Source: Paraspadella gotoi
Taxonomy: Eukaryota > Animalia > Chaetognatha
DNA length: 64,000 nucleotides
Assembly (NCBI GenBank): GCA_051294375.1
Contig: CM119266.1
Location: forward strand, 9,680,538-9,744,537
Direction of reading: 5' to 3'
The translations under genes were made by a program, and so were the position numbers. The notes under the pieces are model-generated. The model had not been told where the DNA came from. It ran no database searches and saw only the letters and a list, made by a program, of their open reading frames with translations. This document shows, one piece after another, positions 1 to 52,651 of the stretch (position 1 is the stretch's first letter; each line of letters opens with the position of its first letter).

Positions 1-2754
1 CCCGACCGACCCTACCTCCTCAGCAACTTTCAGATTTTTGGTAAGTTCGTCAAGGAGGGAAAGGCCACGATTAAGCTCAAAGATATCGACCTTCAAATCT
101 TGATCTCCAACTGTCCGCCGGACAAGCTCAACTCTTTTCTCAAAACCATCTCGATCAAAGTAACCTGCGCGAAAAACGAGGGAAATCTCTCCGAGCCCTC
201 AGTCAGAAAGAAGTTGTTGGCGGAGCGGAAGCCCGCCTTCAAGCTGATCAGCCCCCTCAACGCCAAGAACGCCGCCGTCGTGGAGTCCGTTATTCGTGGG
301 TCCGGGGTTAAAGGGAAGAAGAGAGACCTTCAAGCGACGCCCTCTCCCGGAAAGAAGAGCAAGAAAGCGTGCGGTGAGTCCTAATCAGTTTATGACTCGT
401 CTGTATTTATAAATTGTAGAATTTTTTAGACTAATTTTAACCAATATTAAACTTATCTTCGTTTCCCCACAGTGGCCACGTCGGACAAGGAGAACATTCG
501 CGTTCCTTCTAGAACAAGAAAACAACTGAGCCAAATGTTGACCTCGCCAAAAAGCGTTGCGCCCAAAACCGGCCCCATTATCTCACCGCCAACCAAAGAA
601 AAGATCCTCAATAAATTCCTTCCATCGGCGTCGAAATTGACGCCGTCTCAGCGCCGCGTTCTCGATGCCGTGCGACGCGGTCAGTCCGTCTTTTACACCG
701 GCGCAGCCGGTACGGGCAAATCTTTTCTTACCAAATCTATCGTGGGCGCACTGCCGCCTGATCAAACTTTCGTCACCGCCAGCACCGCCATCGCCGCCTG
801 TCACATTGGCGGCACTACGTTGCACGCCTTTGCCGGCGTGGGCAGCGGAACGCAGCCGTTGGAGCAATGTGTGCAACTGGCAAACCGAAGCAGCGTCAAA
901 CAACAGTGGAAAAAGTGCAGGTAGAGAAAATCAACGAAGTAACGTAGTCGTGATTTCTTTCGGAGAAATTAGAGGAATTTTATTAACATACGTAAAATAC
1001 ACGAGGAGAAAATGATAATTGTAGTGTTTTAGGGCGGATAACAACTTGAAAATTTTTTAGTTTCTTGAATCTTGAGTGTAAGTCGCTTCCATGAGGAAAA
1101 CCTCTTCGAATGGTCAACAGAGAAGAAAAGGCAAAAAAATAAAGCGGAACAAAGTACAATCAGATCTATCCAGAAGTTGGCGCCATTGTCGTCTACTTTT
1201 TTAACAAGTGAATACGAGCAAAGGTCGTGTCTTTTTTTATTTGGAAGCCTCGTTGTTCTATTTTCTATTGTTTACTTGTTTGAACTGGAAACGTAGTTTT
1301 AATTTTTTTTTTTTTAAAAGGGAATTTTTTGGTGGACAGAGATTTTTAAAGTTCAACAATTTAATAAAAAAATTATTTAATTTAATAATTTAAAAAAAAT
1401 AATTTAAATTTTTTTTGTAGAATTCGAGTAATTTTATGAACATAAAATACACGAGGAGATAATGATAATTGAGAGTAAAAACAAATATTTAAAGGTCAAT
1501 AACAACTTGGAAATTTGATATTAGTTTCTTGAAGCTTAGTTTCTTCTCTTTTTGCCTTCTTCTCTTTCTCTTCGGTTCCGAGAAGAAGCCAGGACTCCTC
1601 CTCTCTGATTGGTTAAGAAAGAAGAAAGGCAAAAAAGCCAAGCGAGACGAACTACGATTACATCCATCTATCCATTTCCTACGTTATTATCACGAATTTC
1701 GAGAGTTATCTAGTTTTTTAGCAACATTGTTTCGCTACATCAGAACTTTTTAGCCTTTATACTTACCATCAGGTACCTCATAATCGACGAAATCTCCATG
1801 GTGGACGCATGTTTTTTTGATAAGCTCGAAGCCGTAGCACGCTCGGTCAGAGGAAACGACAAACCTTTCGGCGGAATCGTTCTTGTTCTTTGCGGCGACT
1901 TCCTCCAACTTCCACCCGTCTCCAAAGAGTCGGGACTCCGTAAAAAGTTTTGCTTTCAAGCTGCGAGTTGGAGCTCATGCATTAATCTCACCATCGAACT
2001 CAAGGAAATCTTTCGTCAGAAAGATGCGCGCTTCGTTGAAATTCTTCAGCAACTGCGATTCGGTCGCTGTCCTCCCGAAGTCGCCGACGTTTTGCGTCAA
2101 ACGACGCGTCATAAGTTGGACGCCGAAGGCATCATCCCCACACGACTTTTTACTCACAACCAGGACGTCGACGCCACGAACCAGCAGCACCTCAAGCTCT
2201 TGTCTCAAAAGCTGGAAACATTCGAATCCGTCGACACCGATGAAACCAATTCCAAAGTGATCTCTCTCCTCTGCCCGGCGGCGCCCTCGAGGATTCAGCT
2301 CTGCCAAGGCGCTCAAGTGATGCTGACCAAAAATCTTTCTGTGTCGTCAGGACTCGTCAACGGAGCCAGAGGCGTCGTCACGGGTTTCGAGACAGCATCG
2401 GGTAAAAAGCTCCCGAGGGTCAAGTTTGCCTCGGGCCTCGAAACGGTCGTCAAGGCGGAAAAGTGGCCCGTTAAAGTTACATCCGGGAACGTCGTCTTTC
2501 GCCACCAGTTGCCCTTAAAACTGGCCTGGGCCATCTCGGTGCATAAGAGCCAGGGGATGACGCTCGATTGTGTGGAAATGAGTTTGTCGCGCGTCTTCGA
2601 AAGCGGTCAAGTGTACGTGGCGCTATCTAGGGCCAAATCCCTCGAGTCCGTGAGAATTACGGACTTTGATCCTTCTTGCGTCAGGGCGAATAGAGACGTC
2701 CTAGATTATTACAAATCCATACGTAGCGAGCCCGCCTTGTCGCTGAGATTTTAA
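1..2754 (+). CDS. PIF1: ATP-dependent DNA helicase PIF1, 5' end outside window; exons <1-373, 473-920, 1773-2754
   Basis: N-terminal FVKEGKATI...ISNCPPDKL; Walker A GAAGTGKS; spliced RYLIIDEISM; GDFLQLPPV, FRQKD, LAWAISVHKSQGMTLD, GQVYVALSR. GT-AG junctions keep the frame. Confidence 0.96.
982..1722. repeat. Two diverged direct copies (~982-1207 and ~1433-1722) of a 230-290 bp segment inside PIF1 intron 2
   Basis: Collinear shared blocks: aaaatacacgaggag-aatgataattg, ataacaactt, tagtttcttgaa, ggcaaaaaa, atctatcc, tctacttttttaacaa vs tctagttttttagcaa. Confidence 0.75.
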
Positions 2755-2930
2755 TATCCTACGTTAGGGTTTTTTTCACGTTGGATTGTTTAACTCTGGA
2801 CTGCAGAATTTTATATATATTTTTTATAAAGCGCGACATTTTTATATTCTTAACCGTTTTATATTTTATGTATCGTGTTTTCTCTATTTAAGATAAATCT
2901 AGGGGGAAAAAAATTTTCCAGCGTGACTTT

Positions 2931-3572
2931 ATGATGAGCAGCGATGAACAGGACGTTGATATCGAGAGCGACGAGGAAGAGAACGAGGCTATGCACGTGG
3001 GCAACCGGTTCGCGTCACCGGAGGGCGAGAATCTTGACAAGCGTGCGCATCACAACGCCCTCGAGCGGAAGCGGCGAGACCACATCAAGGACTCCTTCAA
3101 CGGGCTCAAAGACTCCATTCCGTCCATGCAGGTAGTTTGTTTATTTGGACTCGTAGGATTTAAAGACATTTAGCATGAGAGAACTTTCCGCTGTTTTAAT
3201 TTTTTTTTTTTTTTTTTTTTTTTTTTAGGGCAATGAAAAGATGTCACGGGCTTCTTCCCGCGCGCAAATTTTAAAAACGGCGACGGAATACATTCAATTA
3301 ATGCGGCGGAAAAACGTCACGCACCAAGAGGACATAGACGATTTACGGAGGCAAAATTCTCTGCTCGAGCATCAAATTCGAGCCCTGGAACGCGCCAAGA
3401 TGACGGGCCTTGGGAACGGAGGTTAACAACGAATAAAAGAGCCGGTCGCTTAAGATCCGATAAAAAATATATATTTTTTTCAAATTTTCAATCAGCCGGC
3501 GCCATGAATCAAATGTCTTCTCAAGTTCTCGGGATGACTGACGACGAATTGAACGAAAACTCGGATTTGTGA
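2931..3572 (+). CDS. MAX: MYC-associated factor X (bHLH-Zip); exons 2931-3131, 3229-3421, probable 3496-3572 (unspliced stop at 3426)
   Basis: [21 protein letters not shown]; [20 protein letters not shown]; [20 protein letters not shown]. Confidence 0.95.
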
Positions 3573-4012: not shown

Positions 4013-6363
4013 ATGGGAGACCACATAGAAAATGACGATCGGTTCAAACACATCGCCAAGGACCCGCGGTTTCGCCGAATGCGAAAAAACGAGCAAAAGG
4101 TCAAATTGGACAAAAGGTTCAAAAATTTGTTTAGCGACAAAAGATTCTCGGACGACGTGGAGATTGACAAGCGGGGGCGGCCGATCGAAGAAGGATCGAA
4201 GAAGAGCGACTTGAGACGCTACTACCGGATCAGCGAATCCGAAGAAGATGATGATGAGGAAGAAAACAATGCCGGCCCAAGACCAGCGCCGGAAGCTATA
4301 AAAAAAATGGCGGAGCAGCCGGACTTTTCCCGCGGCGAGGGACTCGAGTCTTCTTCGAGCAGCGAGGACGAAGACGACGGAGACGACGACGACGAAGACG
4401 ACGGACTCGATCTGAGTCAGGCGTGGGGCGCATTAGACGCCGACGCGGAAACGAGCGAAGAGACCTCTCGTCGTCTGGCGATGTGCAACATGGACTGGGA
4501 CCGAATCAAGGCCGTCGACATTCTCGTCCTCTGCTCCTCTTTCGCGCCCAAGGGGAGCGTCGTTAAATCGGTGACCGTCTATCCCTCGGAATACGGGAAG
4601 GAGAGGATGAGAGAAGAGGACTTCTCGGGTTCGTTCGTTTTGTCTGATTTTGGTTGTTGTTTTGTGCGATTTTGTGCGTTGTTTAGTTTCTCTTATAGTA
4701 TGGGCTGAGTCATACATTCTGTACTTTTCATATATAGCAAATCAGTATATATACCAACCAACCGTATTCTTATGATGAGCTGTTTAAAAAAACCGAAAGT
4801 TTCTTGACTGACGTCACCCCACTTTCCCTTTTTTCAAGAAGTTGTTCCTACGCCGCTCTGTTTATTATCTCCAGGTCCCCGCGAACTCGCCCGGGATTCG
4901 GCGCGGGACAACGCCGACGAACCCGATGACGACGACGATGCGCAACAGCGAAAGCTTCGCCAGTACCAACTCAACCGGCTCAAGTATTTCTACGCCTTGA
5001 TCGAGTGCGACACTTTGGCGACGGCGGAGAAGATCTACGCCGACCTCGACGGCCACGATTACGAATCCTCGGGATCGCGGGTCGATCTCCGTTTCGTTCC
5101 CGACGACATGATCTTCGACGAGGCGCCACGCGACGCCTGCGACGCCCTTCCCGGCGCCGACTCCACTTACGAGCCCGAGACTTTCGTCACCAAGGCCTTG
5201 CACCAGTCCAAGGTCGAGTGCACATGGGACGAGACGGACAGGGAGCGGACGAGGATCACGCGGAGAAAGTTCGACAAGGACGAGCTGGAGACTTTGGATC
5301 TCAAGGTCAGTAGGGGGTCAAATGTCAAGTATGGTGCGGGATTAGAAGGAAATTAAGCTGGAGAAGCCTTTGATTTTCAAAGACATTTTGACTCATTAGG
5401 ATTATCTAGCATCGAGTTCGTCGGAGGAAGAAGAAGAGGTTGACGTCGGCGAAGATAAAAATGGGGACGTCAGTGATTCCAAACAAGCTCGAATCGCCGC
5501 CTACCGTCAACTTCTTGAAGGAATCAAGAAGAAGGAGGACGAAACTCAGTCGAAAAAACTCAAAGCGGGCGAACTTCAAATTACCTTTGAACCGGGATTG
5601 AAGGAAAAGACCGAGCAACTCGTCAAGGTCAGGGGATGATAAATGTGTAAAAGAAGAAGACTTGGCGAATGAGGGCGGGAAATTAAAGGATAAGGGAATT
5701 AATTCAGTAATTTTTTTACATGTATTACATTTCATTTAATTGCTTCAGGACAAGTTGGCCGACAAAGTGAAAACTCCATTCGAGGAGATGATGGAGAAAA
5801 AGAAAAAGAAAAAGAAGTCGAAGAAGGAGGTCAACGCCGTCGACGACGAAGACGGCGACGATTTGCCGGCGAACGTCGATCTCAACGATCCCTTCTTCGC
5901 CGACGAATTGAAAAACATCGAAGCCGACAAAACGGAAACCAAGTCGAAGAAAAAGAAGATTAAGAACAAAAACAAAAAGAAGAATGCGGCCGACGAAAAC
6001 GGCGAGGATGACGACGCCGACGAGTTACGTCTCTTGGTCTCCGACGAAGATGACGACGATAACAAACGACACTTCGACATGAAAAAGATTTTGAAAAATG
6101 AGGAAGAGAATGGGGGAAAGAAAAAGAAGAAAAAGGCCGAAAAATCCACCGCGGATTTCGACGTGTTCCAGATCGATTTGAACGACGAACGGTTCGCGGC
6201 CATCAACTCGGATCCTAACTTCAACATCGATCAGTCCAACCCCAGCTTTAAAAAAACCAAATCTTCTCTCGCCCTTTTGAATAACAAAGTCAAAAAAAGA
6301 CCAAACCGTGATGTTGACGGGAGCGACGGGACTAAGTCAAAAAAAATACGACAAACTCAGTGA
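4013..6363 (+). CDS. ESF1: Pre-rRNA processing factor ESF1; exons 4013-4628, 4875-5305, 5400-5627, 5749-6363
   Basis: DDRFKHIAKDPRF, IDKRGR, RRLAMCNMDWDRIKAVD, VYPSEYGKERM, DLRFVPDD, TWDETD, C-terminal NUC153-like DERF...FNIDQSNPSFKKT. Confidence 0.93.
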
Positions 6364-6470
6364 TGCTTATGTTGTTGGGTCGTTGCGATTTGTTTTTACT
6401 TTTATAGTTTTTTGTTTCAGTTAATAAGTTAATTAGTTTTTTTGTTACAGTTAATCGATAAAGACCGAAA

Positions 6471-7096
6471 ATGGGTTTATTAACAATCCTCAAAAAAATG
6501 AAACAAAAGGAAAAAGAGGTGAGACTGTTGATGTTGGGACTTGACAACGCGGGAAAAACGACGATATTGAAAAAGTTTAACGGAGAAGACATCGACGCGA
6601 TATCCCCCACTTTGGGATTCAACATAAAGACTTTGGATCACCGAGGATTGAAACTGAACATTTGGGACGTCGGGGGACAAAAGTCTTTGAGGTCTTACTG
6701 GAGAAACTATTTCGAGAGCACTGACGGACTCATTTGGGTGGTCGACAGCGCTGATAAAGTCCGACTAGAGGATTGTGTCGCCGAATTGCACGGGCTCTTG
6801 CAAGAGGAGAGACTGATGGGGGCCACCCTTCTGATATTCGCTAATAAACAGGTTGTTTTTGCGTCGAAGCCGAATAAAGAAGTTACAATTCCGTTTTATT
6901 TAACGATCAACTCAACTAGGATTTGCCCGGAGTCATGAGCGCGGAAGAGATCGGCGATCGCCTCGGCATTTCTGAAATCGCCAAAACTCATCACTGCCTC
7001 ATCATCGATTGCTCGGCCAAAACGGGAAAACATTTGCTAGAAGGAATAGACTGGATTTGTAACGACATTTCCTCCCGAATTTTTACGATGGATTAA
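6471..7096 (+). CDS. ARL2: ADP-ribosylation factor-like GTPase 2; exons 6471-6851, 6920-7096
   Basis: [65 protein letters not shown]-terminus [10 protein letters not shown]. Confidence 0.97.
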
Positions 7097-7182
7097 TTAT
7101 TTATAATTTTTATTCCGTACTTTTTTTACTTGGGTCTTATTTTCTAAATCGATTTAAATTTCGTAGCATCAGTGCGCCCATA

Positions 7183-8066
7183 ATGGGTGACATGTCGATG
7201 GTCGAACTGAACATTAGTCAAGTGAAATATGACGATGCTTCCAAATCGATACGAACGAAGCCGGGCGAGAAGCATCTCGTTATCGACTGCAGAGACGCGT
7301 TACACTTGTCCGAAAAAACGAACGGCGTCGCCCCGTTCTTTCTCCTTTACTACCGACAACGTCACGATGAATTCTCGATCGTGAAAGCTTTGAAGATCTT
7401 CACCGTCTTCGTCGATCACGAGGGCGTCCCTCTTCTCAAGAAGTACGAAAATCTCGTCAAGAAAATGCGAGACATTATCTCCGAACGGCCAAAGATGGCC
7501 GACGTTTTACTCTGCCTCGAAGACGTGGGGGAAAAGTGTGCAAGTCACCCGTTGGTGAAGGTTTTGCGCGAGGCCGGCGTTGATTGGGAAATGCGAGTGC
7601 TGAACGGGAATTTGAACCAAGTGAGTCCGCCATAACGTGGGGAAATTTTGTTTTGATACCTTGCGTCGATCATATTGACTTATTTTAGGAGCTCGGCAAA
7701 AAACAAGGAAACCGCGAAATTCTTTTTACCCGCCCACCGAAAAATTTTATTTTTTCGGAACCTATTCCCTCGGAAAACTCCGTCGTCGAGGAAACGGTTC
7801 GTCCTGTGCCTTCTTCCAAAGTCGAAAGTTGCCGCGGGGATTCCAATGTTAGTAACTGCGACGAAGACCTCGCGAAATCGTCGTCCGATTCGCGTAAAAA
7901 TTCCCACCGACTTTTCGAGGAGAACGAGAAACAGTTGGAACAGTTGGAATCTGCAAAAGCGAGTCTGTATAAGTCCTGGCGGTGGACGTTTTACTTGATT
8001 CCCGCCTTTCTCATCGCTCTTTTGGCGATCGGGTTGCATTTGATGATAGACCGTTCGGAAGAATGA
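7183..8066 (+). CDS. Uncharacterised protein with C-terminal transmembrane anchor; exons 7183-7620, 7689-8066
   Basis: caa|gtgagt donor and ttttag| acceptor join the ORFs in frame; codon usage like neighbours; hydrophobic WRWTFYLIPAFLIALLAIGLHLMI near the C-terminus. Confidence 0.7.
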
Positions 8067-8658: not shown

Positions 8659-10453
8659 ATGCGGGAGGCGAAGTCCCCCTTGCTCCTGGTGGGCGAGGCC
8701 GGCTTTGCCTTCGCGTCCGCTTTCGCGATCGCTCGACCGGAAATGACGTTTCTCGCTACCTGCTATCAAACTGAGCAGACGACTTTGGAGCTCCACCCCG
8801 ACGTGGTTGAGAATTTGCGAAAAATCGCCGTGGGCGCTCCCAAACATCGTTTCGCATTCGGAGTGGACGCGACCAAATTGGAAACTTATGACGCGGTCAC
8901 TTCGCTGCGACCGAAGACGATATTGTTTAATTTTCCGCACGTGGGAGGAAAATCGAATATCAAGAAAAACCGTCGCCTTTTGAAGGAGTTTTTCTGTAGT
9001 TGCTCGATGCTGTTCGAGCTGGAAGAGGAGGCGGAAGAAGAGACGAGGAAGACTCGTAAGATTGTGACTGCAGTTGTAACTGTTTAAAACTTGTATTATC
9101 ATTAATTTCTCACATTGTTAAGGCGAAATATGGGTGACGCTTCTCAACGGGCAAGGAGGCACAAGTGCCGATAGCCCTCGACGCGAATGGGCTAACAGTT
9201 GGCAGATAACGGCCATGGCTGCCGAGGGAGGCTTCATTCTCCGTCGTTGTTTTCCCTTCGACGAAACGTCTTTTCCCGGTTACGTCCGTACCGGATTCCG
9301 CGGCCGGGACCAATCCTTTCAGGGTCAGGCCGGCGCGATCGTTCACGTGTTTGAAAAAGGATTAGCCGCACCGCTCGTGCCCACTCGCGTTTCTATCATG
9401 ACGGTGGTTCCCCACCCGATCGTCGAGAACGAGTCTTCTCCCGGATACTTACCCGCGCACATTTGCCGTCGACTGGAATCCATCGTCAGATGGAGTTCGC
9501 GTCATCCGCTCAGACGCGTCCTGGACCCTTTGCTGAATTCTTCGCTGATTCCTGGCGAATCCTTTGCGAAAAAAATTCCGCCTTTTCTAACATTGGACGA
9601 TGTTACAAAGAACTTTTTGTCGGACAAAGAATATTTTGTTCTTGCGCACCAGGAGGATATTCCTTTGGAGGACGGAAATTCTAAACTGTTTTTACGCTCC
9701 ACTGTCTTTCAAAACGCTCTCGAAGATTTCGCCATCGAAAAATGGCGACCGTGTTATCACGGGGATTGTTACCGAAAAGCATCTTTAGATAATCTAAACG
9801 CTTTCTCTTACGAACTTTTGTTTCTCTCGGAAACCGAGGAAAGCCTTTCCCAACTTTTACAATCGAACCAGTCGTGTTTTCTGAGAAATGATTTCTCAAA
9901 TAAATCTCACGAACTGTTCACCGTTTTCCCGCCGGCCCTCGAGTCAATAATCGAATTAGAAAGAGTTTATCACGGCGTCCCCGAAGTGGAAAGGTTTTTC
10001 GGATGCGAGGGTCGACTCGATGCGGGAAATTCGATTAAGAAGAAATTATACTTCGCGTGGGTGAACGTCTTAGAGTTGACCTCAATCGTCTTCCAAGTCG
10101 AGGATTCTCGTTTGTTTTGGACGCGCGACGAAAGGCTGGAAAGAGACGCAGAGCAATGTCGGCTGCTCAGCGTCAGTCTGCACCCTCCGCTCTGGACGCA
10201 CTGTATGAGCTTTTGGGAGCCCAGCTCCTTCGACGAAGAGGCTTTCATCAACGTCGTCCTCGATTTTGCCGAGGATCTGTTAAGTCGTGTAGAACTCGTT
10301 GAGCGTTATACGGACAAGAAGGGCCGCGCTTCGAGATGTTATCAATTCACCTACGAGTGTCTAGATAGACCGCTGACCAAAGCTCGATGCAGTTCTTTGC
10401 AGTGTAGCTTGAGATTAATAGTCGAAAAAGCGTTAGGGGTCGAATTGAGATGA
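8659..10453 (+). CDS. FDXACB1: Ferredoxin-fold anticodon-binding domain protein 1 (DUF2431/Bmt5-like methyltransferase + PheRS-like + FDX-ACB); exons 8659-9055, 9123-10453
   Basis: LLVGEAGFAFA, FGVDATKL, FNFPHVGGKSNIKKNRRLLKEFF, VTLLNGQGGT, NSWQITAMAA; C-terminal SFW...VELVERY...SRCYQFTY...LGVELR. Confidence 0.9.
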
Positions 10454-10544
10454 TTAATTGATGCTAAATTATTTATTTTATCGCAGAAATGTTACAAGGT
10501 CTGACTCTCTGATTATGCGCTTTGCCGCGAACTTAGCCACCATA

Positions 10545-11264
10545 ATGTTGAGGAAACTAAAGGGACTATTTTTGTGCTTTCTGAACGTGTTCAAGCGTGC
10601 CTTGTGCTTCATCAGACGTCGACCTCCGCCGAGTCCCGTGCTTCCCGTCGTCCTCGCTGACGCCAAGAGCGTCGCGTACGACATTCCGGAACTCGGGAGC
10701 GGCGATACCGGCTTCGACAGCGACGTCGCGGTTTCCTGGGACTCTTGGGACAATGACTTTCACTCCGACTCGACGGCCGCCGCTCCTCCTCAGTCATTTC
10801 CCCCTCATCATCCGGCCGCCGTCCAGCCGGCTCTCGAACCGGAAACGCCCGAGGAGCCGGATTACTTCGCGGACATGACTCCAGCCTCCTTCAAGGCGCC
10901 CAAGATCGTCGTCCGCAAGAAGACTCCGCCAGAATCTGTCCCCTCTCGTCGCCCGGCGGGAACCTTCTCGGATCGCCTATCGATCACCGACAACGCCAGC
11001 GACGGCTTTGCGCTGACTCCGCCCCAAGAGCTGGCGTCCATGGACGAGTGGGGCGACTCCTCCGTTAACGCTTGGGCCGACGAAGAGAACGAAGAGCTGG
11101 ACTGGGAAGTGGAGTACGCTCTTAGGGAAACTCGGCGCGCGGAACTCGAAAGAAAAAAAATGGAGCAGCAGCAGCGAAGGATGCAGAGAGAGTTGCAGCG
11201 TGGCCGGTCCCAGCCTCAACTGTCGCAGAGTCATTTTCAAACTATCAACGCGTTGACGCAGTGA
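10545..11264 (+). CDS. EBAG9: EBAG9/RCAS1 homolog, single exon (alternative in-frame ATG at 10515)
   Basis: Hydrophobic N-terminus then FKRALC; SWDSWD; EPDYFADMTP...KIVVRKK; FSDRL; C-terminal coiled coil. Confidence 0.85.
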   Translation: MLRKLKGLFLCFLNVFKRALCFIRRRPPPSPVLPVVLADAKSVAYDIPELGSGDTGFDSDVAVSWDSWDNDFHSDSTAAAPPQSFPPHHPAAVQPALEPETPEEPDYFADMTPASFKAPKIVVRKKTPPESVPSRRPAGTFSDRLSITDNASDGFALTPPQELASMDEWGDSSVNAWADEENEELDWEVEYALRETRRAELERKKMEQQQRRMQRELQRGRSQPQLSQSHFQTINALTQ

Positions 11265-11460
11265 TTGTTTTTTGCTATTAGTTTTTTTTTCTCGTCAGAT
11301 CTGGAATACGGTTGGGGGGAATGAATTTTTTTTTTTTAATGCGACCATTATTTAGCTTATTTGGCGTTTCGTCCTTCCATTTCCCTCGAGGGTTTTATAT
11401 CTCACTTCCGATTCCTCAGGTTCTTAGTTATATAATAAACTGAAAACCAGTGATAGGATC

Positions 11461-12805
11461 ATGGCCGTCCCTCCCGCATTCGCCGACCTAGGAAAATCAG
11501 CCAGCGACTTATTGTCGAAGGGTTACAATTATGGAGGTTAGAAAACTTAGAGATACGTTGCAATTTCGTTATTTTCCATCTCCCTAACCTCGGAATCCCT
11601 CTTTTCTATATCAGCCGTCAAAGTCGAAATGAAAACGAAGACAATAACGGGGTTAGGAATAACTACGGGCGGTAGTTCACATCTCGCCACAGGGAAAATA
11701 AACGGCGGTTTGGAGCTCAAACTTCCCGTCGATTATTCCGTTCCCTTTACGCTCAAGGTGTGACATCCTTGAATCCATCGAGGGCGAAATCCCGCCAGTT
11801 TTGTCCCTCGTTAATATAATGGATTTTCATTCTCCCTTCGAAAGGGTAAATGGACGACGGACAACGTATTTCACACGGAGTTGGTCATCGAAGACCAAAT
11901 CGCCAAAGGCGTGAGAATCGCTTGCGAAACGGCCTACGCTCCGACTTCCGGCAAAAAGACGGGGAAAGTGAAAACCGCTTTCAAGGCTCCGCACGTGAAT
12001 TCGAATCTGGGTGAGAGATAGAGTATAAACGGTTAAATTCGAGACCCGATTGAAGTTAATTATTTTTTTTGTGATCGCTTTCCTCTCAGACGTCGATTTC
12101 AACTTTGCCGGGCCCACAGTAAATGGTGCAACAGTCCTGGGTTACCGAGGATTGTTTTCGGGTAAATTACTTTAAAGATAATGAAGATAACCTATGTACT
12201 TACTACTTAACTTATTCTAAAATACAAAGAAAAAATACTCTTTATCATTCCTATGGCTTATCTTAATTAATAAAAGCGTGCAATGTTCATAAATAAGTGA
12301 AATCGATGCAAAAATTGACTCTTTTTCCTAGGCTACCACATGGCCTACGACACGGCGAGTTCGAAATTGACGAAGAGCGACTTCGCTTTCGGTTACGGGA
12401 CCGATGACTTTCAATTATACGCGGCACTGTCCGGCGGCTCCGACTCCTCGGGATCCATTTTCCACAAAGTAAACGAAAAGCTGGAAACGGCGGTGGGGTT
12501 CTCGTGGACGCGAGATTCCCCGGCGGCGCCTTCCTTCGCTATCGGCGCCAAATACGCCCTCGACGATGACTCTTCCGTGGGAGCGAAAATCAATCAAGCC
12601 TCCGCCATTGGAATTACGTTTTCCCAGGTCTGCCCAAAGAGACAGAGAGAGATAAACGTCTTGCGAAATACTTCTTATTTGAATCTTCTTCCTTTTCTAG
12701 ATAATTCGACCCGGCGTTAAGCTGACGCTCTCTTCTCTCGTCGATGCCAAAAATTTCAGCGCGGGTGGTCATCAAGTTGGCTTGGGGCTCGACTTCGAAC
12801 ATTAG
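11461..12805 (+). CDS. VDAC: Voltage-dependent anion channel (mitochondrial porin), 6 exons
   Basis: [25 protein letters not shown]; KWTTDN; [13 protein letters not shown]; GSIFHKVN; IGAKYALD; [31 protein letters not shown]. Confidence 0.96.
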
Positions 12806-39817: not shown

Positions 39818-40450
39818 ATGCCGGTTGTCGCGTACAAGCCGCGCATGAAGACTCGTTTGATCGAGTCGGAAAAAGCGGCCAAAAGTCGTGGTATCGATCT
39901 GTCCGATAGGCAGTTAGGTTGGTGCCTCATTTTCGGCGTCGGGGGCCCCGTCGTCATGGTCGCCGGGGCTCTGTATCTCATCGTCCTCAGCAAGATGGGC
40001 CGCCTCGTGCTCTCGACCAAATCGGAGACGGACGTGCCCGGGTTGGAGGTCGGAGTCGGAATAGCGATGCTGTCTTTGGGGGCCTTTTCCGGCATCGCCG
40101 GGGGCTTCTTCTACTGCGAAACCATGAAGACGAGAAGGACGAAGCTCGAGAGGGAAAAGACGAAGGAGCGCCGTTCGTCCCGACTCAAACTGGCCGTCAA
40201 CCCGATGCAGACTATCGAGGAATCCTCCGAGCTGGGCGACGTGGAGACCTTTCCTCGCCCGGGAGGTTCCGACGGCTCTGGTAGGAAGTCGAAGAACAGG
40301 AGAAGATCCTCGATCGAAGACTCCCAGTCGGAATTGCACACGTATCCATTTTCCAGCATGGAAACAATCAGCACTTTGCATGGCGAATCCGAAATTCCTC
40401 CCAATTATTCTTCGTTGTTTCCAATATTATCTGAAACAGAAAAAGACTAA
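39818..40450 (+). CDS. Uncharacterised two-transmembrane protein with disordered cytoplasmic tail
   Basis: Two hydrophobic segments (GWCLIFGVGGPVVMVAGALYLIVL; VGVGIAMLSLGAFSGIAGGFFYC); PPNY (PPxY) near the C-terminus; GC-rich coding-like sequence. Confidence 0.72.
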   Translation: MPVVAYKPRMKTRLIESEKAAKSRGIDLSDRQLGWCLIFGVGGPVVMVAGALYLIVLSKMGRLVLSTKSETDVPGLEVGVGIAMLSLGAFSGIAGGFFYCETMKTRRTKLEREKTKERRSSRLKLAVNPMQTIEESSELGDVETFPRPGGSDGSGRKSKNRRRSSIEDSQSELHTYPFSSMETISTLHGESEIPPNYSSLFPILSETEKD

Positions 40451-41777: not shown

Positions 41778-41808
<31 letters not shown>

Positions 41809-41852
41809 TACATTGTTTTGTTTTTCGATCCGTAAAAGATGCGCGGCGGTCG

Positions 41853-44800
41853 ATGATGGCTTCCACCTGGCGAATACTGATTATATTGCTGTGGTGCGCG
41901 TGCGCCCAACTCCTCGGCCTCTACTTGTTCTCCAAAGGATTTTTACTCAATCGAGTTGAGATACACAATGTCAGTTCGTGTGTCTCCGATGATTCAGCGC
42001 CTTGCGCGCGGAGACCGCAGTTTCGTCGCCTCATCGTCATCGTCGTCGACGCGCTTCGATACGATTTCGCCACCAGCGACTCGACGCTCAAAAACCCTAA
42101 GCCGTTTCAAAACAAAATGCCGGCGTTCGAGCGCCTGCAGACGCTTTACCCCGACTCGACGAAACTCATGGAGTTCGTCGCGGATCCACCGACGACCACC
42201 ATGCAGCGCCTCAAGGGTCTCACCACCGGAAGCTTGCCCACTTTCGTCGACATCGGCGCCAATTTTGACGGATACCGAGTGACGGAAGACAATCTGCTTG
42301 CACAGCTCTACGCCTCAGGAAAATCGGTCGTCTTCGCGGGCGACGACACTTGGACTAATCTCTTTCCCAGTCATTTCCTTCGACAATACCCTTATCCATC
42401 CTTCAACGTCCGGGATCTACACACCGTGGACGAAGGCGTTCGCCGCCATATTCTCCCGGAGATGGAGCGCGACGACTGGACCGTGCTCGTCGGCCACATG
42501 CTCGGCGTCGATCACTGCGGCCATCGATATGGACCCGACCATCCAGAAATGGGCTCCAAGTTGAAGGAGACGAACGAATTCATCGAGCGAGTCGCCGAGC
42601 GGATGGAGAACGACACCCTCTTGATTGTGTTGGGCGATCACGGCATGACCTCTTTCGGCGATCACGGTGGCGACTCGGACAACGAACTCTCGGCGGCGCT
42701 GTTTGTCCACGGTCGTAAGCCTTTCGTCGATCATTCGCGAGACGTTTCGCGCGTTCCTCAAATCGATCTCGTTCCGACTCTCTCGTTATTGATGGGAACC
42801 CCTGTCCCTTTCTCTAATCTGGGCAAACCGATTCTCAGTCTCTTCCCATCTCTCGATGATCAACTTTTCGCCGTCGACGCTACTCTCCGTCAAGTCGAGA
42901 GATACCTCCGCATTTACGCCGGCGTCTCCAATGACATTCCGATCGAAGACTCGAGACTTTTATCGAAACTCTACGAAGACTTGAGCTCCGTTTCCGATCG
43001 GAATCGACTCGATCTAGCTACTCGTTACTTGGAGACGGTGCGGGAAGTCTGCGAAAAGATTTGGGCTAAATTCAACGTAACCTTCATCGTTCTCGGCCTT
43101 TTCGTAATTTTTCTCTCCATCGTCGTCGTCGTCACTCTCTTCAGCGACACGCGAATCTTCGTCGTCGACGACTACTTTCAAAGATTGTGCTACATTTTCG
43201 CCATTTCCACAATCGTGGGCGTCTTAGAACTCATTGTGCCGAGGCTCGTGGTGTCCCCGGTTCCGGTCACCGAGGGAATCGTCTCATTTACCGGCGCCAT
43301 CCTCGGCGTCGTCCTCGTCGCCAAGAGAGCCTACGTGGATGACGAAGAGCGGGGCGCCGCCAAAGCGTGGCACCGTCTCCGTCGTCCCTCGATCGGAGGC
43401 GTTGCGGCGACGGTCGCGATCGGCTTCTGGTGCGCCTCCGCCTTTTCCAACTCTTTCGTCGTCGGTGAAGATCGCGTCGTCGCTTTCGTCTTCAACTCGC
43501 TGCTCTGGTTTGTCGTCGTGCATTCGATCACCAAACGAGGGAAAGATCCGACAACGCCGCAGACGCAGAACAGCGGAAAATCGAAGGCGCCGCGGCAGAA
43601 TCTCGGCGACTGGATTCTGCACTGGAAGACTCTCCTGGTGCTGGCGACGTTGGCGGTCTCCTGCTTGGTAGCGTTGTCGCGCTACTTGGGTCAAGCGTGT
43701 CGCGAGGAGCAGTTTTGGTGCGACTCGTCCTGGTTTTTGGAACCTCTCTCGTCGTTTCAAAGAGGAAAACAATTAGGAGCGGGACTGAACATTCGGTGAG
43801 TTGAGGCTAATTTTCTTAGTCACTTTTAGTAAATTATAATTTAAAATCAAATTTAAATTAAAAATTCGTTTCTATGTTTAAAAATCATCTAAGTATTTAA
43901 ATTAAATTTAAAATAAATCAAAATTAAATTAAATTTAGTTACCATTAAAGCCCAATAAAAGAATTACTTTTGCCATTGAATGCCTTATTTTAACAGTTAC
44001 TTCGGCTCCGTCTTCGTTCTCGTCGGCACAGTTTACTGCTTTCAAAAACTTCTTCGACACGACGGAAATCTCAGCGGCGAGAGCGTTCCTGTTTTGACGA
44101 CCAAGTTCTTCACTCCTCTCCTCGTCGTCTTCCTCTCCCTTCACTGGGCATCGCACGAAAAGCTCCCGGCCTGGCAACAGGCGTTCATGCCTCGAGCCGT
44201 TTACGTTCTAGTCGGGGCGCTGCTCCTCGTCTTCGCCTGGAATCCGCTGCTGCTTTATTTTGTTCACTTTCCTAGTCCCTTCGACTGCGAGAACACTCGG
44301 CTAAACCTCGGCTACGGTTCCGCCGAGGAACTCGTCCGCCTCGCCTACCGTCGCATCAAAACCAATTGGCGGGAGCATCTTAAGTCGTCAACGAGCAACG
44401 GCGACGCGATGGCGGGAACGAAGCCGCGCGACGTTCCGCCTCCTCACGCATTCGGTCTCGCTACAGCCTACTCGTCTTCAATCATCGTGGTCTCGATCGC
44501 TCTCTTCCTCTTAATCTCAATGGTCTTGGGGGACGGCCTGGTCTTCGCTTTGATATGCTACCTGGGAGTGTCGGCCTTGTGGCTGGAGATCTATTCCTCG
44601 ACGTTGTTCGCGCGACCTGACGCTTCCAAGACGATGACGGGATCCACTTTCGCCGCTTACCTGCTCGTCCCCTGGTGGGCCGTCGTTGGCTGGGGTCTGC
44701 TCGTCTCCGTCTTCTACTTTTATACCGGCCATCAATCGTCCATCCCTAACATCCCGTGGACGGCGGCTTTTCATGGTGTCAACGTCGATCATGCCCCAAG

Positions 44801-45248
44801 AGTCATCGTCGCCGCTCTCGTCTCTCTTAACCTCTTCGCGTCAGACGTGCTCGGCGCTCTCTCGCTACCCCTGCTCATCCTTTGGCCGTACGCACGCGGC
44901 GGGCTCGCCTTTACCTTTTCCAAGCGCTACTCGTCACCAGTGGCCGACCAAAAGCACGAAGTGGCCCTGCAGGACAATCAACGAGTAGTTTCGGTGGCCG
45001 TGCTCAAACTGGTACTCGCCTACCTCTTATTCGCCTCGCTGCGGCTATTCTCGGCGACGGCCGCGGCGGCGCTTCATCGGCGCCACCTCATGGTATGGAA
45101 GATCTTCGCGCCGCGTTTCGTCTTCGAGGGCGCGAGGTTCGTCGTCGTCGCCGTCTCGCTCGTCGCCAGCGTCGCCCTTTTCTTCAGGATCGACGCCCAA
45201 ATTAGGAAGTGGCTCACAAACGTTCAAGAAAGAATCGTGAAAAAATGA
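41853..45248 (+). CDS. PIGO: GPI ethanolamine phosphate transferase 3; exons 41853-43795, 43997-45248
   Basis: FSKGFLL; VDALRYDF; FVADPPTTTMQRLKGLTTGSLPTFVD; GVDHCGHRYGPDHPEM; FSNSFVV.ED; TGHQ...IPW.AAF.G; RRHLMVWKIFAPRFVFE. Confidence 0.96.
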
Positions 45249-45459: not shown

Positions 45460-47695
45460 ATGGGAAAACTCTGTTCCAAACATGCTCGCAAAGTTGAAAA
45501 AGAGTCGAACTCAATGGCGAGCAATATATCGGCCTTATACGCGAGAAAGGAGAGCAACTCGCCACCTCCCAACATGAACCAGTCCGTTTGAGATAGTTAA
45601 CTGACTTTGGACAATGGACATTTAAAATGTTTAGCTCCGTTTTTTCTTTTTTATAGCAAAAGGCGACCTGCTTTCAAGTTTCGAAAAGTAAAGTTCCTTT
45701 CAGGTGAATCGCGGTTGAACTGGATTTTTTAAACAAAAAAAGAGAACATAAATTGAATTAAAGAAATAGAATAAAAAATCTTAAAAGCATAAGGATCAAG
45801 CCATGATGATAGTCATTCATTGATGCGATGATAGTCATTCATTCATCGTAAATAAAACAAACAAATGCGTGTATGAGTGAAAGAGAGAGAGAGAGAGAGA
45901 GAGAGGCTGGACAGTTTTCCCGCCAACGAAACGCAATCAGAATTTTTAGGGAAAAAATCCACGAAAATCTCGGATGTAAATTTGGGATTTTGTATTGAGA
46001 AAAAAGCGCGGAATAAATGGCGATAATAAAAGTTTTTAGAAGGAAAAAAAGAGAGAGAGAGAGAGAGAGAGAAGCTGGACAGCCGCTGGACCGCCGCTGG
46101 ACCGCCGCTGCACCGCCGCTGCAGAGCTGAACTCATTTTCCAACGAATATGAGTAGGGACGAACTCTTTTCCTTTCTATAAAAAAAATATTACAAAATAA
46201 ATATTTGGGTATAGAGCCATATAGAAAATTTTTGTACATTGAAAGTAAACTTAAAAATGCATAAATTTTCGTTTGAGCATGTTCCCATACTAAATTTTTG
46301 ATTCACCCCATTGAGAGGGGCTACCCCTATTCAGAAGAAAAAAAACTTGATAAAGCTAAACTCTTTTCAATAATAATGATCCAAAAATTATAATCCCTAT
46401 TAACAAAATATATAGTTGAAAATACTCAGTTAACGACTATGATATTTTTGACTTCCAAATATTTTTTTTCCCTCATTTTTAAAAATTTTAATCTTGAATG
46501 AAATTTTTGATTGTTCTTTTTTTAGGAAGAAACCAGACCGAGGTCAAATTTTATATTTGCATATTTAATTAATTTATAAATAGTTATCACAACTCAAATA
46601 ATTATTTTTTAAAAAAAAGATAAAAATGATTAAATATATACACTAAAAATATTTATAATTTAATAATAGTATAAATTATCAGAATAACAAAAAAAGTAAT
46701 GTTTAATTTGACTATATCTCTCTTATCAACTCCTATTTTAGATATAATTTGCCAATAGTGGGCCAACCGGTTCAAAGTTACAATAATAAATAAATACAAA
46801 TTTATTTTTTTTAAATGTAATGCATATTGTTCGCCGAAAGTGCTGCATATATAATAAGTCACATTAGCTGATTTACATGTGACAATGCATGTCAATATAA
46901 GTTATTCTTCACTTTTTTTAAAATGTATCCACGAAAATCTCGGATTTAAATTTGGGATTTTGTATTGAGAAAATAAGTTTTTGAGAATAAAAGTTTTTAG
47001 AAAAAAAAACATAATCATAATTTTTCAAAAAAAGAACGATCACGCAAGAGATCGTAAAGAGAGAAAGAGACAGAAAGAGAGAGAAAGAGAGACAAAGCTG
47101 GACAGCTGCTTGAAGGCCGCTGTACAGTCAGTGCAGAAACTGAACTCGTTTTTTCTGAAATAAAAGAATAAAAGAAATAAAAGAAAGGCAAAAAATGTTA
47201 TAATGGTTTACAATTGGAAATTTTTACAATTTTTTCCAATCGCAGCTTGTAAAAGATTTTATTTTTATTTGTATTAAAATTAAGATATAGCTTCTCATTA
47301 AAAAGTTATTTTGAGTTCCCATTTTTATTAGAGATTTAAAAAAAAATTTTTGAATTTCATCTTCAATATTATATACTGCAATATGTAAATTAGATTAAAG
47401 CATTTCTATATACTAATTTGGATATGATAATGAGTACTATAATCTCATTTGCATATTGCAGTAAATCATAATGAAGTGGAAATTCAAACAAAAAATACTT
47501 AAATCCAAATGTAATAAGAAAATATCAAAGCTATTTCAAGATGAGAAGCCATATCTAAATTTTTAACTTACTATGAATGCACACTTTTGTAAAACTTTAT
47601 CATAATTCATAATAATTTTTATTTTAAAAAAAACGGTAAGTCACAGCCAAACCTATAAAAGCGTAGTAGTTTTTATTTAAAAACAGCGTAACGGC

Positions 47696-47726
<31 letters not shown>

Positions 47727-48329
47727 TACGTCACAAAGAAGCTCACCCGAATCAATATCAAGCCTGAACCGGCTTCGCCGGTCATGGCTTGATAAAAAGG
47801 TCGGGGAATCTGTTTACTCGATAAGCGAACGTAAGATTGCAAAAGAGGAAGGAATTCAAACAAAAGGTTGTCATAGGAGACAAGACGCAAGACAGAAAAG
47901 CGTTAGCTAATTAAACGGAGACTAAATATTACATTTTAGGTAGGTCGAAATATTCCGGTCGAACATTTTTGAAAAAGGTAAGGATACCGGAGTTCATATG
48001 CCACAATTTTTCGTAAGTTGTTGTAAACGCTGTACCATCGTGTCTAGAAATTCGTCCGAGCGAAAGTCGAGCGATCCCGCGACATCTATTTTTCGTCAAT
48101 TTCGTCTTGGAGCGACGGACCAATCGTGGACATCGTCCCGGCGCCGCCAATGCGTCAGGATTCCTTCGAACGCCTCGTCTCTTCGGAATTAATTAAGAAT
48201 CTCAATTCTTCGTTCGCCGAGGAAAGGGTTGCCGATCGTAAACAGCGGGCCAAATCGTTCAATGCGCGAACTTTTCGAGGGAATCGGGGAAAGGGCGGAA
48301 GCGGGGGCAAAACCAAGGGTGTAAAATGA
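45460..48329 (+). CDS. Putative 4-exon orphan basic protein starting MGKLCSK (exons 45460-45581, 45657-45703, 47940-47977, 48048-48329)
   Basis: Hand-assembled GT-AG junctions with compatible phases (2,1,0) give one open frame; two introns are 70-75 bp like others here; no homolog recognised. Confidence 0.5.
45957..47152 (+). repeat. Direct repeat of about 190-225 bp (45957-46140 and 46927-47152) with GA microsatellite
   Basis: atccacgaaaatctcgga(tg/tt)taaatttgggattttgtattgagaaaa, aataaaagtttttagaa, aagctggacagc and ctgaactc are shared. Confidence 0.85.
47274..47566. repeat. Imperfect palindrome (foldback) of about 290 bp
   Basis: agatatagcttctcat pairs with atgagaagccatatct; tttgaatttcatcttca with tgaagtggaaattcaaa; tactgcaatatgtaaattagatta with taatctcatttgcatattgcagta. 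Confidence 0.85.
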
Positions 48330-48433: not shown

Positions 48434-51400
48434 ATGTCGAATTCGTTGAACGCGACCTCCTCGCCGGCGCGCCCTGCGGCGCAACCTCACCGAGCGGTGG
48501 GCGAAGCTGAAACTGAAGAAAACGACGGCAACTTGCCTCGGGTGGAAATTGAGCCGGCGGCGCCCCAATCAATCGTGGCTATCTTGACGACCGGCTCGAT
48601 TGTTGGCGCCGGATTGTACGACGTCGAAACTGGCGTTTTGATGGGCGTGCCCGACCAAGGTTGGCTCAGTTGTAACGCCGATCCCATTGAACGCTAACTG
48701 ATAAAATCTAAATCCCGATTGCAGTCGATTTCGACGACTACCGCGTCTCTCGAAAAATAATTACGCAATTGTCGCCGACTCGCGTGGTCGTCATGCCAAC
48801 GGCGCCTCGAAAGTTTTTGACGATGCTCAAGGCCGCAGGCGTTGGGGTGCGGGAAGAAGGCGGGGAGGCCGAGGAGGAAGGTAGCTGGGTTACTAATTAC
48901 TTTATATGTACTATGTAGCTAACTTTAAAAAAAAAAAATTCGAGGGGCTACTTGCGAAATGTCCACGTTGTCGCTAAAAGAGTGGGATTTCAAGCTCTGC
49001 TTATCCAGGTTGCTGACACTACCCTTATTTAACCAAGACAGAGGAGATACGTCCAAAGGTATCGCTCGAGTAGTTTTAAAACATTTAAAACATTAAAACA
49101 CAAGGTCCCATTGGTCCATGTTCATTTCTCTCTTCATTTCTCGGAAATTGCAGAAGACCGCTTGATGCTGCTGGACGCCAAGCTTTCTCTGGACAACAAA
49201 CTGATGATCCGGTGCTTGGGCGCCGTGTTAGGTTTTCTGCTCAAACACCGCGTCGGGGGCGTGGTGCTTGACGCCGATGCCGGTGTCTTCGTCGCCGATC
49301 TGCGACTGCGTCGACTTGACGACGTTCTCCTGCTCGACCACAATACTCTCGACGCGCTGCGGGTCTTCAAACGTGTCGGGCATCCCGCGTCCTCGCTCAA
49401 ATCTGGAGTAGTGAAGGTTCAAAATAAATCTTTAGTTTAAGTTAGTAAATTTACAACGTAACATTACTTATAATTATAATATCATTTGGATTTGATCATA
49501 CGGCGGATCCGCAGACCAAAATTCTTTGTCGGGGTGTCTTTTGTTTACCTTTGAGAAACTTATCGCTCTTTTCCGACGCTCACCTATCATTAAAGTGGGA
49601 AAATGAAAACAAAAGAGTAATTTACCATGAGTATGACAGCAAAAGTAACATTAACATTAACATTAACAAGCTTTATTTTTTAATTAGAGTCTATGATACA
49701 ACTTTTATGCATTATACAATCAGGACTTTGAATGTCTCTTCACGCTGGCCAACACCTGCAAGAGCAAACCGGGTTCATCCTGCCTTCGATATTGGTTTCT
49801 TCAGGTCAATACTTTATTTTTCTAATCTTCAAATCAGCCCTGAGCCACACTTCCCCCCCACCCTCAACCTCCCCTCAGCCCTCCACCGATCCCGCCGTCA
49901 TTCGGCCTCGTCTCGACGCCGTCGCCTTTTTCCTCGCCTACTTCACTTCCGCCTGCGACGCGCGCGTCAAAGAACTCTCTCGTCTTTTGTCCCGCGTGGG
50001 ATTCGTGGCGCGCGTCTTCACCAAAATTGCCACGGCTCCGGCCACCCATCGCGATTTCCTCTTGCTTTCTCGCACGATCGTCGCCGCCAATCACGTGACG
50101 CGGTTGCTCGGCGACGCCTTGGAAGCCATTGTCGGCCGGTCTCGTCGGGGAAGCGACGTCGAAGCCGCGTCGGGATTGGCGCCGATCGTGGCGCGGCTCC
50201 GCGCGGCCAACTCTCCCAGCGTGATCCAGGTCGCCGAAGCGATGTTGAAGGCTCTCGATTTGGAAGCGATGGAAACTCAAAAGAAGATCTTAGTTCGAGA
50301 AGGTTGGTGGAGACTACAACTCGATTTTTCCCATTTTCGCTCTACCGGTTTCTCTGTTTTTCCTTATTCGTCCTGTGTTTTTCTTTGAAGTCCCATGTTT
50401 TACTTTTTTCTATTTTTTTTCCTTTTGAATTTTTACCGGGTGTAATTACATTGTTAACTTTAATTTTGCCTCTTTTTAATATTTTTTTATTTTGTTTGTA
50501 AATAATTTTTATCGATGATTAATCAAAAAATATATAAAAAAATATTAGTCAACTGTTTTGTCCTAACCCCGAAAGGCGTGGAGCCGTCGTTGGACCGGCG
50601 CAAGCGGGATTTGACCCGTTGGCCGGAGTACCTTAGCATTCAAGCGAAGCGACAAATGGATCAGTTGCCCGGGTTCGTCTCCTCCTGCACCCTGGTTTAT
50701 CTCAACCAGATCGGGTTCTTGGTTCAAATTCCGATGGACGATTCGTCGGGAAAGGAGACGAGACTGAAGGCCGCCGGAGCAGAGATCGTTTTCAGGTTTT
50801 TTTGTGGGGAGAGAATAAACTTTTTGGGATAGAGATCGAGAGAAAAGGCTGCGATCTTTCTTTTTATGCCTGGGGTTAAATTTGGTAGGTTTTTATTCAG
50901 GTTTTCATTAGCTACAAAATTTTTTGCAATGAAATATAATGAGCAGTTATGAGCTGTAGTTTTTTGAATGCTAGAATAGTTGAATTTGTTTATTTTTTGT
51001 TAAAAGATTACTGGATTTTAATGAAATTGGTACAACCAATATAAAAATTATCCATTCATTTAATAAATAAGCTATCTTGCCCCTGACTTTGGACAGGCTT
51101 TGGTGGTTTAAGGCCTCCATCACTCTTACAAGATAATGACATACCAGGTCCCTGTCGAAGTTACCAATAAGTGATTGTTTTCTCGCTTTTTCCCCGGTTC
51201 TTTTATTTCCCTCAGTCACGACGACATGACTTATTTAAAAACTCCACTGACCTCCCACATCGACAAAGAGTACGACGACCTCTTGGAAACGATCGCGTCT
51301 ATGGAGCGCGAGATCCTTCGGCGCCTTCAACGCCTCGTCGTCGCCGAAGCAGGCCCCGTCTCCAGGCTCGTCGACGCCGTCGCGGAGGTCGACGCCCTTC

Positions 51401-52651
51401 TCGCCTTGGCCAACTTCGCTCACCGATGCAATCTCAACAAACCGGAAATCGTGGAACCTTTTAGGTTTGGTGTGATGTTTTGTTGATTGGTGTATTTACT
51501 TTTTAACTTAAAACTTAAACCGAAACAGCGACGACTCCCACTCGATTGTCATGCAAGACTCCCGACACATCCTTCAAGAAGCTTTCGTGGAAGAGACCTA
51601 CATCGCCAACGATTTCTTCAGCGGAGGAGATGCAAACAAGATCAAGATTCTTACCGGACCCAACGCCTCGGGAAAGAGCGTGTATTTGTGTCAAGTACGA
51701 TCAATTTATCTTATCAAATGCGGGCTTTATAGGATGCGTGATTATTTAAACAGCCAGTCATATCCATGATCCTCATGACTGGTTGATTTACTGACATAAT
51801 CGTACTTTTAGGTAGCATTGGTGGTCTACTTGGCACAAGTTGGTTCGTTCGTGCCCGCAACGCGTGCGCGACTTTCGATCGTCGATCGTATTTTCACTCG
51901 AATTAATTCGGAAGAGAGCGTCAGCGCCTGCACGTCCTCGTGGGGCTGCGATCTGGGACAAGTCGCCGAAATGATCAACGTAAGCAACGAAATGCAGTCT
52001 CTGCTCTTTATTTGATGACAACCTTCAGTTATTTCCAAACTCTAGGAAGCCACGCCCACTTCCCTCGTCCTCCTCGACGAGTTTGGCAAAGGCACCGACG
52101 CAGTCAGCGGATCTTCCCTCCTCGCCGCGGTCGTCAACCGATGGAGTCGCCGCGACAACGGCGCTTCTCCCCACATTATCGTCGCCACTCATTTTCACGA
52201 GTTGACGCGCCTCACGGAAGACGGGACGGTCGGACTCTACCTCGCCAACGTGGAACGAATCACGTTTTTGACGATGAGTTTCGTCAGCGAGGATTCCGGG
52301 CATGAAGACTCCGCCGCGGCGCCTCCCGCGGCCGTGGACGCTCCGACGAAACCGGGCACCCGCCTGACCTTTCTCTACCGCGTCGTCGAAGGTTGTCATC
52401 GATTCTCCCACGCACTGCAGATCGCCGAGTCGATTCCGCTCGGGGACGCTATCATCGCGCGAGCGAGGGAGGCTCTGACGGCGATAACAGACCCTGACGG
52501 AGGAGAAGATTTCCTGCCTTTGGAGAGCGAATCGGAGAAGAAGAAGAGGATGAAGGATCAGAGAATCTTAGAAGAAATCGCAAACAGGGTCATCGACGAG
52601 AAGGCGGTGGAAGATTTGAGGAAAATAGTGGCAGAGCTGGACAAATTGTGA
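48434..52651 (+). CDS. MSH5: Meiotic MutS homolog 5, multi-exon
   Basis: TLDALRVF...HPAS; LRYWFLQPS...RLDAVAFF; IKILTGPNASGKSVYLCQVAL; GSFVPA; DRIFTRINSEESVS; SLVLLDEFGKGT (MSH5-type); ATHFHEL; FLYRV.EG. Confidence 0.92.

Follow-up and report, generated by a model that had tools for sequence, protein, structure and literature searches.

A run of 27 co-oriented chaetognath genes as a probable chain of a few very long spliced-leader operons

The first 52,651 bases of a 64,000-nucleotide (nt) stretch of Paraspadella gotoi DNA (contig CM119266.1, positions 9,680,538 to 9,744,537; hereafter the window, to which all coordinates refer) hold 27 genes that all lie on the plus strand, the first of them beginning upstream of base 1. 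On the basis of open exon models with GT-AG introns, domain searches and assembled RNA, we regard this run as probably a few very long spliced-leader operons in a chain, with chaetognath-type processing, comprising a chain of at least 10 genes by a strict distance rule, chains of 14 and 12 genes when borderline gaps are counted and possibly all 27. In such a tract RNA polymerase would continue across most junctions over long stretches, introns would be removed by cis-splicing, 3′ cleavage and polyadenylation near each following acceptor would free the upstream message, and a leader added at the acceptor just ahead of the next start codon would cap the downstream message. Trans-splicing and operons are already known in chaetognaths, and it is apparently only the length that is new.

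An earlier note had described about 27 co-oriented plus-strand genes up to 52651, and the models bear this out, with 49 cis introns across 27 genes and no minus-strand gene found among them. None of the 27 long minus-strand open reading frames (ORFs) tested matched Pfam, no convincing coding ORF of at least 40 residues appeared on the minus strand in the non-coding DNA of the run, and Rfam and ARAGORN returned 0 matches and 0 transfer RNAs, respectively. Pfam supports 20 of the 27 genes on plus frames (60 ORF pieces scanned), cystatin, like several exon pieces, scoring under the curated cut-off; a further gene, COX6B, has a weak match. Six genes without Pfam matches were retained through homologues (EBAG9-like, n = 13; a membrane-protein orphan, n = 5), paralogy within the window (the VDAC-like protein and the PH paralogue), an RNA-confirmed intron (the orphan at 45460) or codon score with RNA cover (the orphan at 7183, which also had no useful Atlas match, best score 0.79). 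Beyond the Pfam family level, the names MAX, ARL2, EBAG9, FDXACB1, RASSF, SPOP, PIGO and MSH5 are labels that we assume. A 2.9-kb stretch past PIGO, considered as a break in the run, was rejected because it holds a four-exon gene starting at 45460. The genes and processing sites of the run, and the gene that closes it, are as follows.

1..2754, +: PIF1 helicase (Pfam PIF1, PH_LRR1), 5′ end beyond the window; two introns seen
2931..3572, +: MAX-like bHLH protein (Pfam HLH), RNA contig start back-computed to 2923
4013..6363, +: ESF1 (Pfam RRM_ESF1, NUC153), on a contig common to MAX
6441..6450, +: putative trans-splice acceptor of ARL2 (AG at 6449-6450), from the contig tail pattern
6471..7096, +: ARL2-like Arf GTPase (Pfam Arf), intron in RNA
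7183..8066, +: orphan of 271 residues with a hydrophobic C-terminus, codon score 0.38
8659..10453, +: FDXACB1-like protein (BMT5-like and FDX-ACB, Pfam), intron in RNA
10545..11264, +: EBAG9-like protein, 13 homologues, most with PF28220; bridged to FDXACB1
11418..11420, +: putative 5′ acceptor of VDAC, contig start 11420 (joint side 115, bin arithmetic)
11461..12805, +: VDAC (Pfam Porin_3), five introns in RNA
13255..13675, +: COX6B, weak Pfam match, two introns in RNA, contig common to VDAC
13949..13951, +: putative 5′ acceptor of RIMOC1, contig start 13951 with 28 loose letters
14127..15376, +: RIMOC1 (Pfam RIMC1)
15744..16527, +: BLOC1S1/GCN5L1 (Pfam GCN5L1), contig extending to 17374
17732..18659, +: divergent VDAC-like protein, 23% identity over 137 residues to VDAC (E 5e-5 among the 27 proteins)
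18811..21267, +: RASSF-like protein (C1, RA, SARAH; Pfam), contig from exon 2 of the VDAC-like gene to 21787
21814..22107, +: acylphosphatase (ACYP; Pfam)
22565..24302, +: SPOP-like BTB/BACK protein (Pfam), both flanking junctions outside the RNA-aligned stretches
24899..30034, +: PH-domain protein of 1711 residues, single exon (Pfam and gene model)
30675..31751, +: 358-residue paralogue of the PH protein C-terminus, 48% identity (E 2e-80), with a contig bridge to the PH protein
32491..33555, +: HMG-CoA lyase (HMGCL; Pfam HMGL-like), intron in RNA
33754..34800, +: JmjC/cupin protein (Pfam, homologues), on the HMGCL contig 32192-35215
35290..35292, +: putative trans-splice acceptor of PGPEP1, contig start 35292 (joint side 183, exact bin sum)
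35300..36081, +: pyroglutamyl peptidase (PGPEP1; Pfam Peptidase_C15), two introns in RNA
36345..37690, +: SPFH/Band 7 protein (Pfam), five introns in RNA
38381..38900, +: cystatin, weak Pfam match, intron on the Band 7 contig
39818..40450, +: lineage-restricted membrane protein of 210 residues (the membrane-protein orphan), five homologues at 44-49% identity; contig 39452-40660
40708..41583, +: F-box and MIF4G protein (Pfam)
41837..41839, +: putative trans-splice acceptor of PIGO, contig start 41839 with zero loose letters
41856..45248, +: PIGO-like GPI ethanolamine phosphate transferase (Pfam)
45460..48329, +: four-exon orphan of 162 residues with a 2.2-kb intron; first intron in RNA, open model
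48434..52651, +: MSH5-like MutS protein (Pfam MutS_III, MutS_V), final gene of the run
52742..54373, −: convergent acidic/coiled-coil gene closing the run, open three-exon models with coding scores 0.44 and 0.61

All-against-all BLASTP among the 27 proteins found only two paralogue pairs, VDAC with the VDAC-like protein and the two PH proteins, the genes being mostly unrelated. The run is not a tandem paralogue array, whose members are homologous copies; with at least 27 genes and two such pairs it has, in this respect, the make-up of a trypanosomatid-type directional cluster, in which tens to hundreds of unrelated genes occupy one strand. The fair-coin chance of its co-orientation is 0.5^26 = 1.5e-8. 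If 70% of neighbours share a strand, about 0.6 such runs would be expected per 20,000 genes, and orientation alone is thus no proof of an operon or of co-transcription.

Evidence of transcription across the junctions comes from de Bruijn contigs of one RNA run (X1), which contains 0.76 of the words of 2900-12800; two further runs from relatives (X2 and X3) gave short coding matches only. We take X1 to be spliced RNA from this organism or a very close relative, because its contigs skip modelled introns and show few letter differences. The stretches aligned, 2500-22400 and 30300-45800, take in 23 of the 26 junctions, with ACYP-SPOP, SPOP-PH and orphan-MSH5 lying outside. At least 9 GT..AG joints match modelled introns in the first stretch, and in the second all 11 modelled introns are present as GT..AG joints with no CT..AC joints (complete table, 14 rows), so that at least 20 cis introns are seen as RNA joints. 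Joints dropped as repeat or paralogue artefacts were, in the first stretch, those in a GAC-rich patch of ESF1 (4396-4405) and one joining 6023 to 15212 with a side of 21 letters and, in the second, a joint of 20 letters and a pair between paralogues, one member of which fixes the PH bridge.

Single intron-skipping contigs cross 7 of the 23 junctions. Those of FDXACB1-EBAG9 and HMGCL-JmjC were taken straight from alignment piece tables, those of MAX-ESF1, VDAC-like-RASSF and the PH pair from joints together with record lengths, and those of VDAC-COX6B and Band 7-cystatin from a shared depth along the contig and bin sums that agree with observation. At an eighth junction, between the PH paralogue and HMGCL, two contigs span the gap and overlap within masked poly-T. 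DNA carry-over does not explain this cover, since the bridging contigs skip introns and bin depths match the expectation for spliced contigs. We infer that the bridged contigs are read-through precursors from a tract with very few promoters. The contig of PIGO ends at 45388, 15 nt past an AATAAA and with three loose letters, which fits ordinary 3′ processing within the tract. Contig presence alone was used, as an upper bound on gaps; differences in depth between genes were set aside, as were the lack of contig cover at about 11294-11419, at 35216-35291 and over the 5′ part of FDXACB1, none of which was counted as evidence either way.

The tight packing claimed in the earlier note stands in part: the six gaps it quoted (176, 107, 86, 196, 151 and 198 bp) are all exact, but they were selected from the smaller ones. 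Across all 26 junctions the stop-to-ATG distance spans 86-1204 bp around a median of about 400, and it stays below 250 bp at 9 of them. By that distance alone (<250 bp) the longest chains hold three genes. When the RNA is used instead, each contig end setting an upper limit, 20 of the 26 junctions prove to be bridged or shorter than 250 nt and so fall within the published chaetognath operon rule, as given in PMC12460157, of less than 250 bp between models annotated with untranslated regions (UTRs). By the X1 contigs, most gaps are taken up by UTRs. Where they can be bounded, neighbouring RNAs approach to about 10-230 nt: the distance is about 10 nt at RASSF-ACYP (the RASSF contig end at 21787 lying 10 nt ahead of the next AG), 76 at JmjC-PGPEP1, 126 at EBAG9-VDAC, at most 47 between the membrane-protein orphan and the F-box gene and at most 71 between PIGO and the following orphan. 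Applied strictly, the rule gives chains of 10, 1, 3, 1, 7, 2 and 3 genes from left to right; four further junctions are borderline, with upper bounds of 255-363 nt and residual cover in most, and counting them leaves chains of 14, 1 and 12 genes.

These distances bear on a more conventional reading, in which ordinary short operons of two to five genes are interspersed with singly promoted trans-spliced genes, the bridges are leaky, the common orientation reflects a genome-wide strand bias and promoters are concealed in upstream 3′ UTRs. The stop-to-ATG gaps, with their chains of at most three genes, favour it, as does the expectation that 70-80% same-strand neighbours would yield 27-gene runs 0.6-12 times per 20,000 genes, and the published account of a chaetognath genome with UTR annotation gives nine genes as the longest operon (PMC12460157); if that account concerns the present species, this run escaped being called in its annotation. 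The 20 junctions joined or narrowed by RNA, ten genes falling in one strict chain, point the other way. Under a geometric fit to the counts given in PMC12460157, the expected number of operons is 0.18 for at least nine genes, 0.003 for at least 12 and 5e-12 for 27, so that the present tract lies beyond the published chaetognath distribution, and even chains of 11-12 genes would be expected just 0.012-0.003 times. We consider the short-operon reading, concealed promoters included, unlikely.

Signs of leader addition accompany the chained arrangement that we favour. The ARL2 contig carries 15 extra 5′ letters before its acceptor, of which 10 align from 6441 with three mismatches and five are loose. 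The leader forms SL2.0, SL4.2 and SL3.3, as described in PMC2481426, predict exactly ten letters and three mismatches, and SL1 and SL3.1 do not; a random tail would give this pattern with P = 0.0003-0.002, depending on scoring. Judged by this mismatch pattern, the 15-nt non-genomic tail would correspond to a chaetognath leader. Among the eight other contig starts that could be fixed in gaps, four lie directly after an AG (VDAC 11420, RIMOC1 13951, PGPEP1 35292 and PIGO 41839), against a gap AG frequency of 0.035 (p = 1e-4). The joint table of 30300-45800, which is complete, lists no cis exon spliced to either the PGPEP1 or the PIGO acceptor. An acceptor motif, by a cis-like score, precedes the ATG in 14 of 26 cases, whereas reverse-strand controls have it in 9 of 26 (Wilcoxon p 0.04; combined shuffle p 7e-4). 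None of three published 12-13-nt cores of leader-RNA genes occurs in the window. Upstream or out-of-frame ATGs lie just past candidate acceptors of the EBAG9-like gene (10489-10514) and of PGPEP1 (35255); the PGPEP1 contig begins at a later AG (35292), so the upstream ATG is excluded there.

Several observations weigh against the chained-operon reading. Six junctions were not brought under 250 nt, three of them outside the RNA-aligned stretches. The leader fit on ARL2 is one of mismatch counts, and 1 weak cis donor of 608 tested upstream fits the same pattern. The remaining four contig starts do not directly follow an AG, namely those of MAX (1 nt off), of the membrane-protein orphan (39452) and of HMGCL and BLOC1S1 (poly-T). 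An upstream cis exon may exist for VDAC and for RIMOC1 (donor at 13853), and the acceptor-motif enrichment is modest and does not reach significance against 3′ UTR controls (p 0.24). The RNA basis is a single run whose contigs cannot be taken as individual transcripts, nor their limits as real transcript ends, and leaky read-through between separately promoted genes would give bridges too.

Those points that concern the mismatch-based view of the leader, the VDAC and RIMOC1 cis exons and the acceptor motif would also suit a compact region devoid of trans-splicing, with a promoter for each gene and the 5′ AG sites belonging to cis-spliced UTR exons. Against this stand the PGPEP1 and PIGO acceptors with their lack of a cis joint, the fit of the ARL2 tail to a published leader, and stop-to-ATG gaps of 86-107 bp, which barely accommodate a promoter together with a UTR and an intron in it; we consider it very improbable.

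At the other extreme, all of the at least 27 genes, over more than 52 kb, could form one RNA polymerase II unit whose only promoter lies left of the window. No junction has been demonstrated to be long, all upper bounds being at or below 363 nt save those of ACYP-SPOP and SPOP-PH (457 and 596), each of the two aligned stretches shows RNA depth in all of its 30 bins, and the run terminates at a convergent pair, the minus-strand stop lying about 90 bp past that of MSH5. CpG counts in the gaps, in a weak test, reach at most 15 per 200 nt versus 17 and 21 in the divergent region past the run. Set against these are the expectation of 5e-12 for 27 genes under the published size distribution, the three junctions outside the aligned stretches, and nematode hybrid operons with internal promoters as documented in PMC7725455 and PMC4138322. 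The contig of the membrane-protein orphan, moreover, starts at a non-AG site 366 nt ahead of its ATG. We hold a single unit to be decidedly unlikely, and some internal promoters, as in hybrid operons, are to be expected, for example ahead of the membrane-protein orphan. In 39340-39452, about 70 nt before that contig's start, lies a CRE-like motif, and the gap between the F-box gene and PIGO holds an E2F-like motif (41610-41700); the motif names are our assumption, and we take both as candidate internal promoters. The earlier note had inferred one very long polycistronic unit or several chained ones; bridging contigs, starts after AG and the ARL2 tail indirectly support leader-resolved processing of operon type, and its second option, several chained units, fits best.

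Some members of the run are unusual in themselves. The 358-residue PH gene duplicates only the C-terminal part of the 1711-residue protein, and one RNA contig joins both (24899-31751). The VDAC-like protein, encoded 5 kb downstream of VDAC, had no Pfam match in the exon pieces scanned and bears a basic, helical-looking C-terminal extension. The single-exon fusion of an F-box with MIF4G is unusual in combining a domain of translation-factor type with a ubiquitin-ligase adaptor. For the JmjC protein, a metagenome scan found 17 loci (35-57% over the best segment); across the whole domain, its named animal homologues are at least as close as any of these. The orphan at 45460 begins Met-Gly, which we take as a possible N-myristoylation motif, and its 2.2-kb intron, with two direct copies of a 47-nt repeat 970 bp apart and a tandem repeat of 11 bp, may hold what is left of a mobile element.

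Past the run and a divergent promoter-like region, a plus-strand gene at 57457-64000 has a very long AT-rich ORF (about 33% GC), its composition differing sharply from that of the 27-gene run. It includes a 57-bp tandem repeat in 28 copies, with frameshifts near 59500-60100 that may be assembly errors; F-x-L-P-D-W-like motifs recur after it and presumably resemble those of AHNAK/periaxin.

If 10-27 unrelated, intron-containing genes depend on read-through here, an animal would be running housekeeping and germline genes (MSH5, PIF1) in trypanosome style, and the locus would offer a defined place to study the suppression of termination along tens of kilobases and the origin of unequal mRNA levels among genes that lack promoters of their own. 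The tract also suggests that long operons may be undercounted where annotation goes by distance. A single unit, if true, would exceed the longest animal operon found in print by a factor of two to three, with gene output set post-transcriptionally; if internal promoters are common, the tract would be a striking yet ordinary cluster of a known mechanism.

The closest known systems are the operons of chaetognaths themselves, in which leaders and an RPS14-PCNA operon with a 3-nt gap were described from Spadella cephaloptera (PMC2481426). For Paraspadella gotoi, the published account has nearly half of the genes trans-spliced and 18% in operons by the 250-bp rule on UTR-annotated models, with a mean candidate size of about 2.4 (5,061 genes in 2,151) (PMC12460157). 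The present tract resembles these in its co-oriented housekeeping and germline genes, its short inter-transcript distances and the fit of the ARL2 tail to the leader 3′ end, and differs from them, with their maximum of nine genes, in its strict chain of 10, likely chains of 14 and 12, and possible 27. Tunicate operons (Oikopleura dioica, Ciona) are likewise head-to-tail, made of loosely related genes and leader-resolved, by the accounts in PMC11067885 and PMC4122922, but mostly hold two genes, with up to 11 reported in PMC4122922 and up to seven predicted for Ciona in PMC7986045. Known animal operons are mostly of two genes, and our literature searches, with most subscription journals outside their coverage, found none longer than the 11 of tunicates. 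Nematode hybrid operons, as described in PMC7725455, PMC4138322 and PMC7652881, provide a model for mixing read-through with auxiliary promoters, although nematodes mark downstream genes with SL2, whereas chaetognaths, by the account in PMC12460157, have no operon-specific leader, and leader type therefore cannot map promoters here. Trypanosomatid (Leishmania) clusters share with this run long same-strand arrays of unrelated genes that end at strand switches, and the units of 29 and 50 genes reported for L. major chromosome 1 (PMC2696322) are comparable to it in gene number. In trypanosomatids, however, this layout is genome-wide, initiation occurs at strand-switch regions and cis-splicing is rare, whereas here 27 genes carry 49 modelled cis introns. 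Were the run a single unit, it would be an animal counterpart of the trypanosome directional gene cluster.

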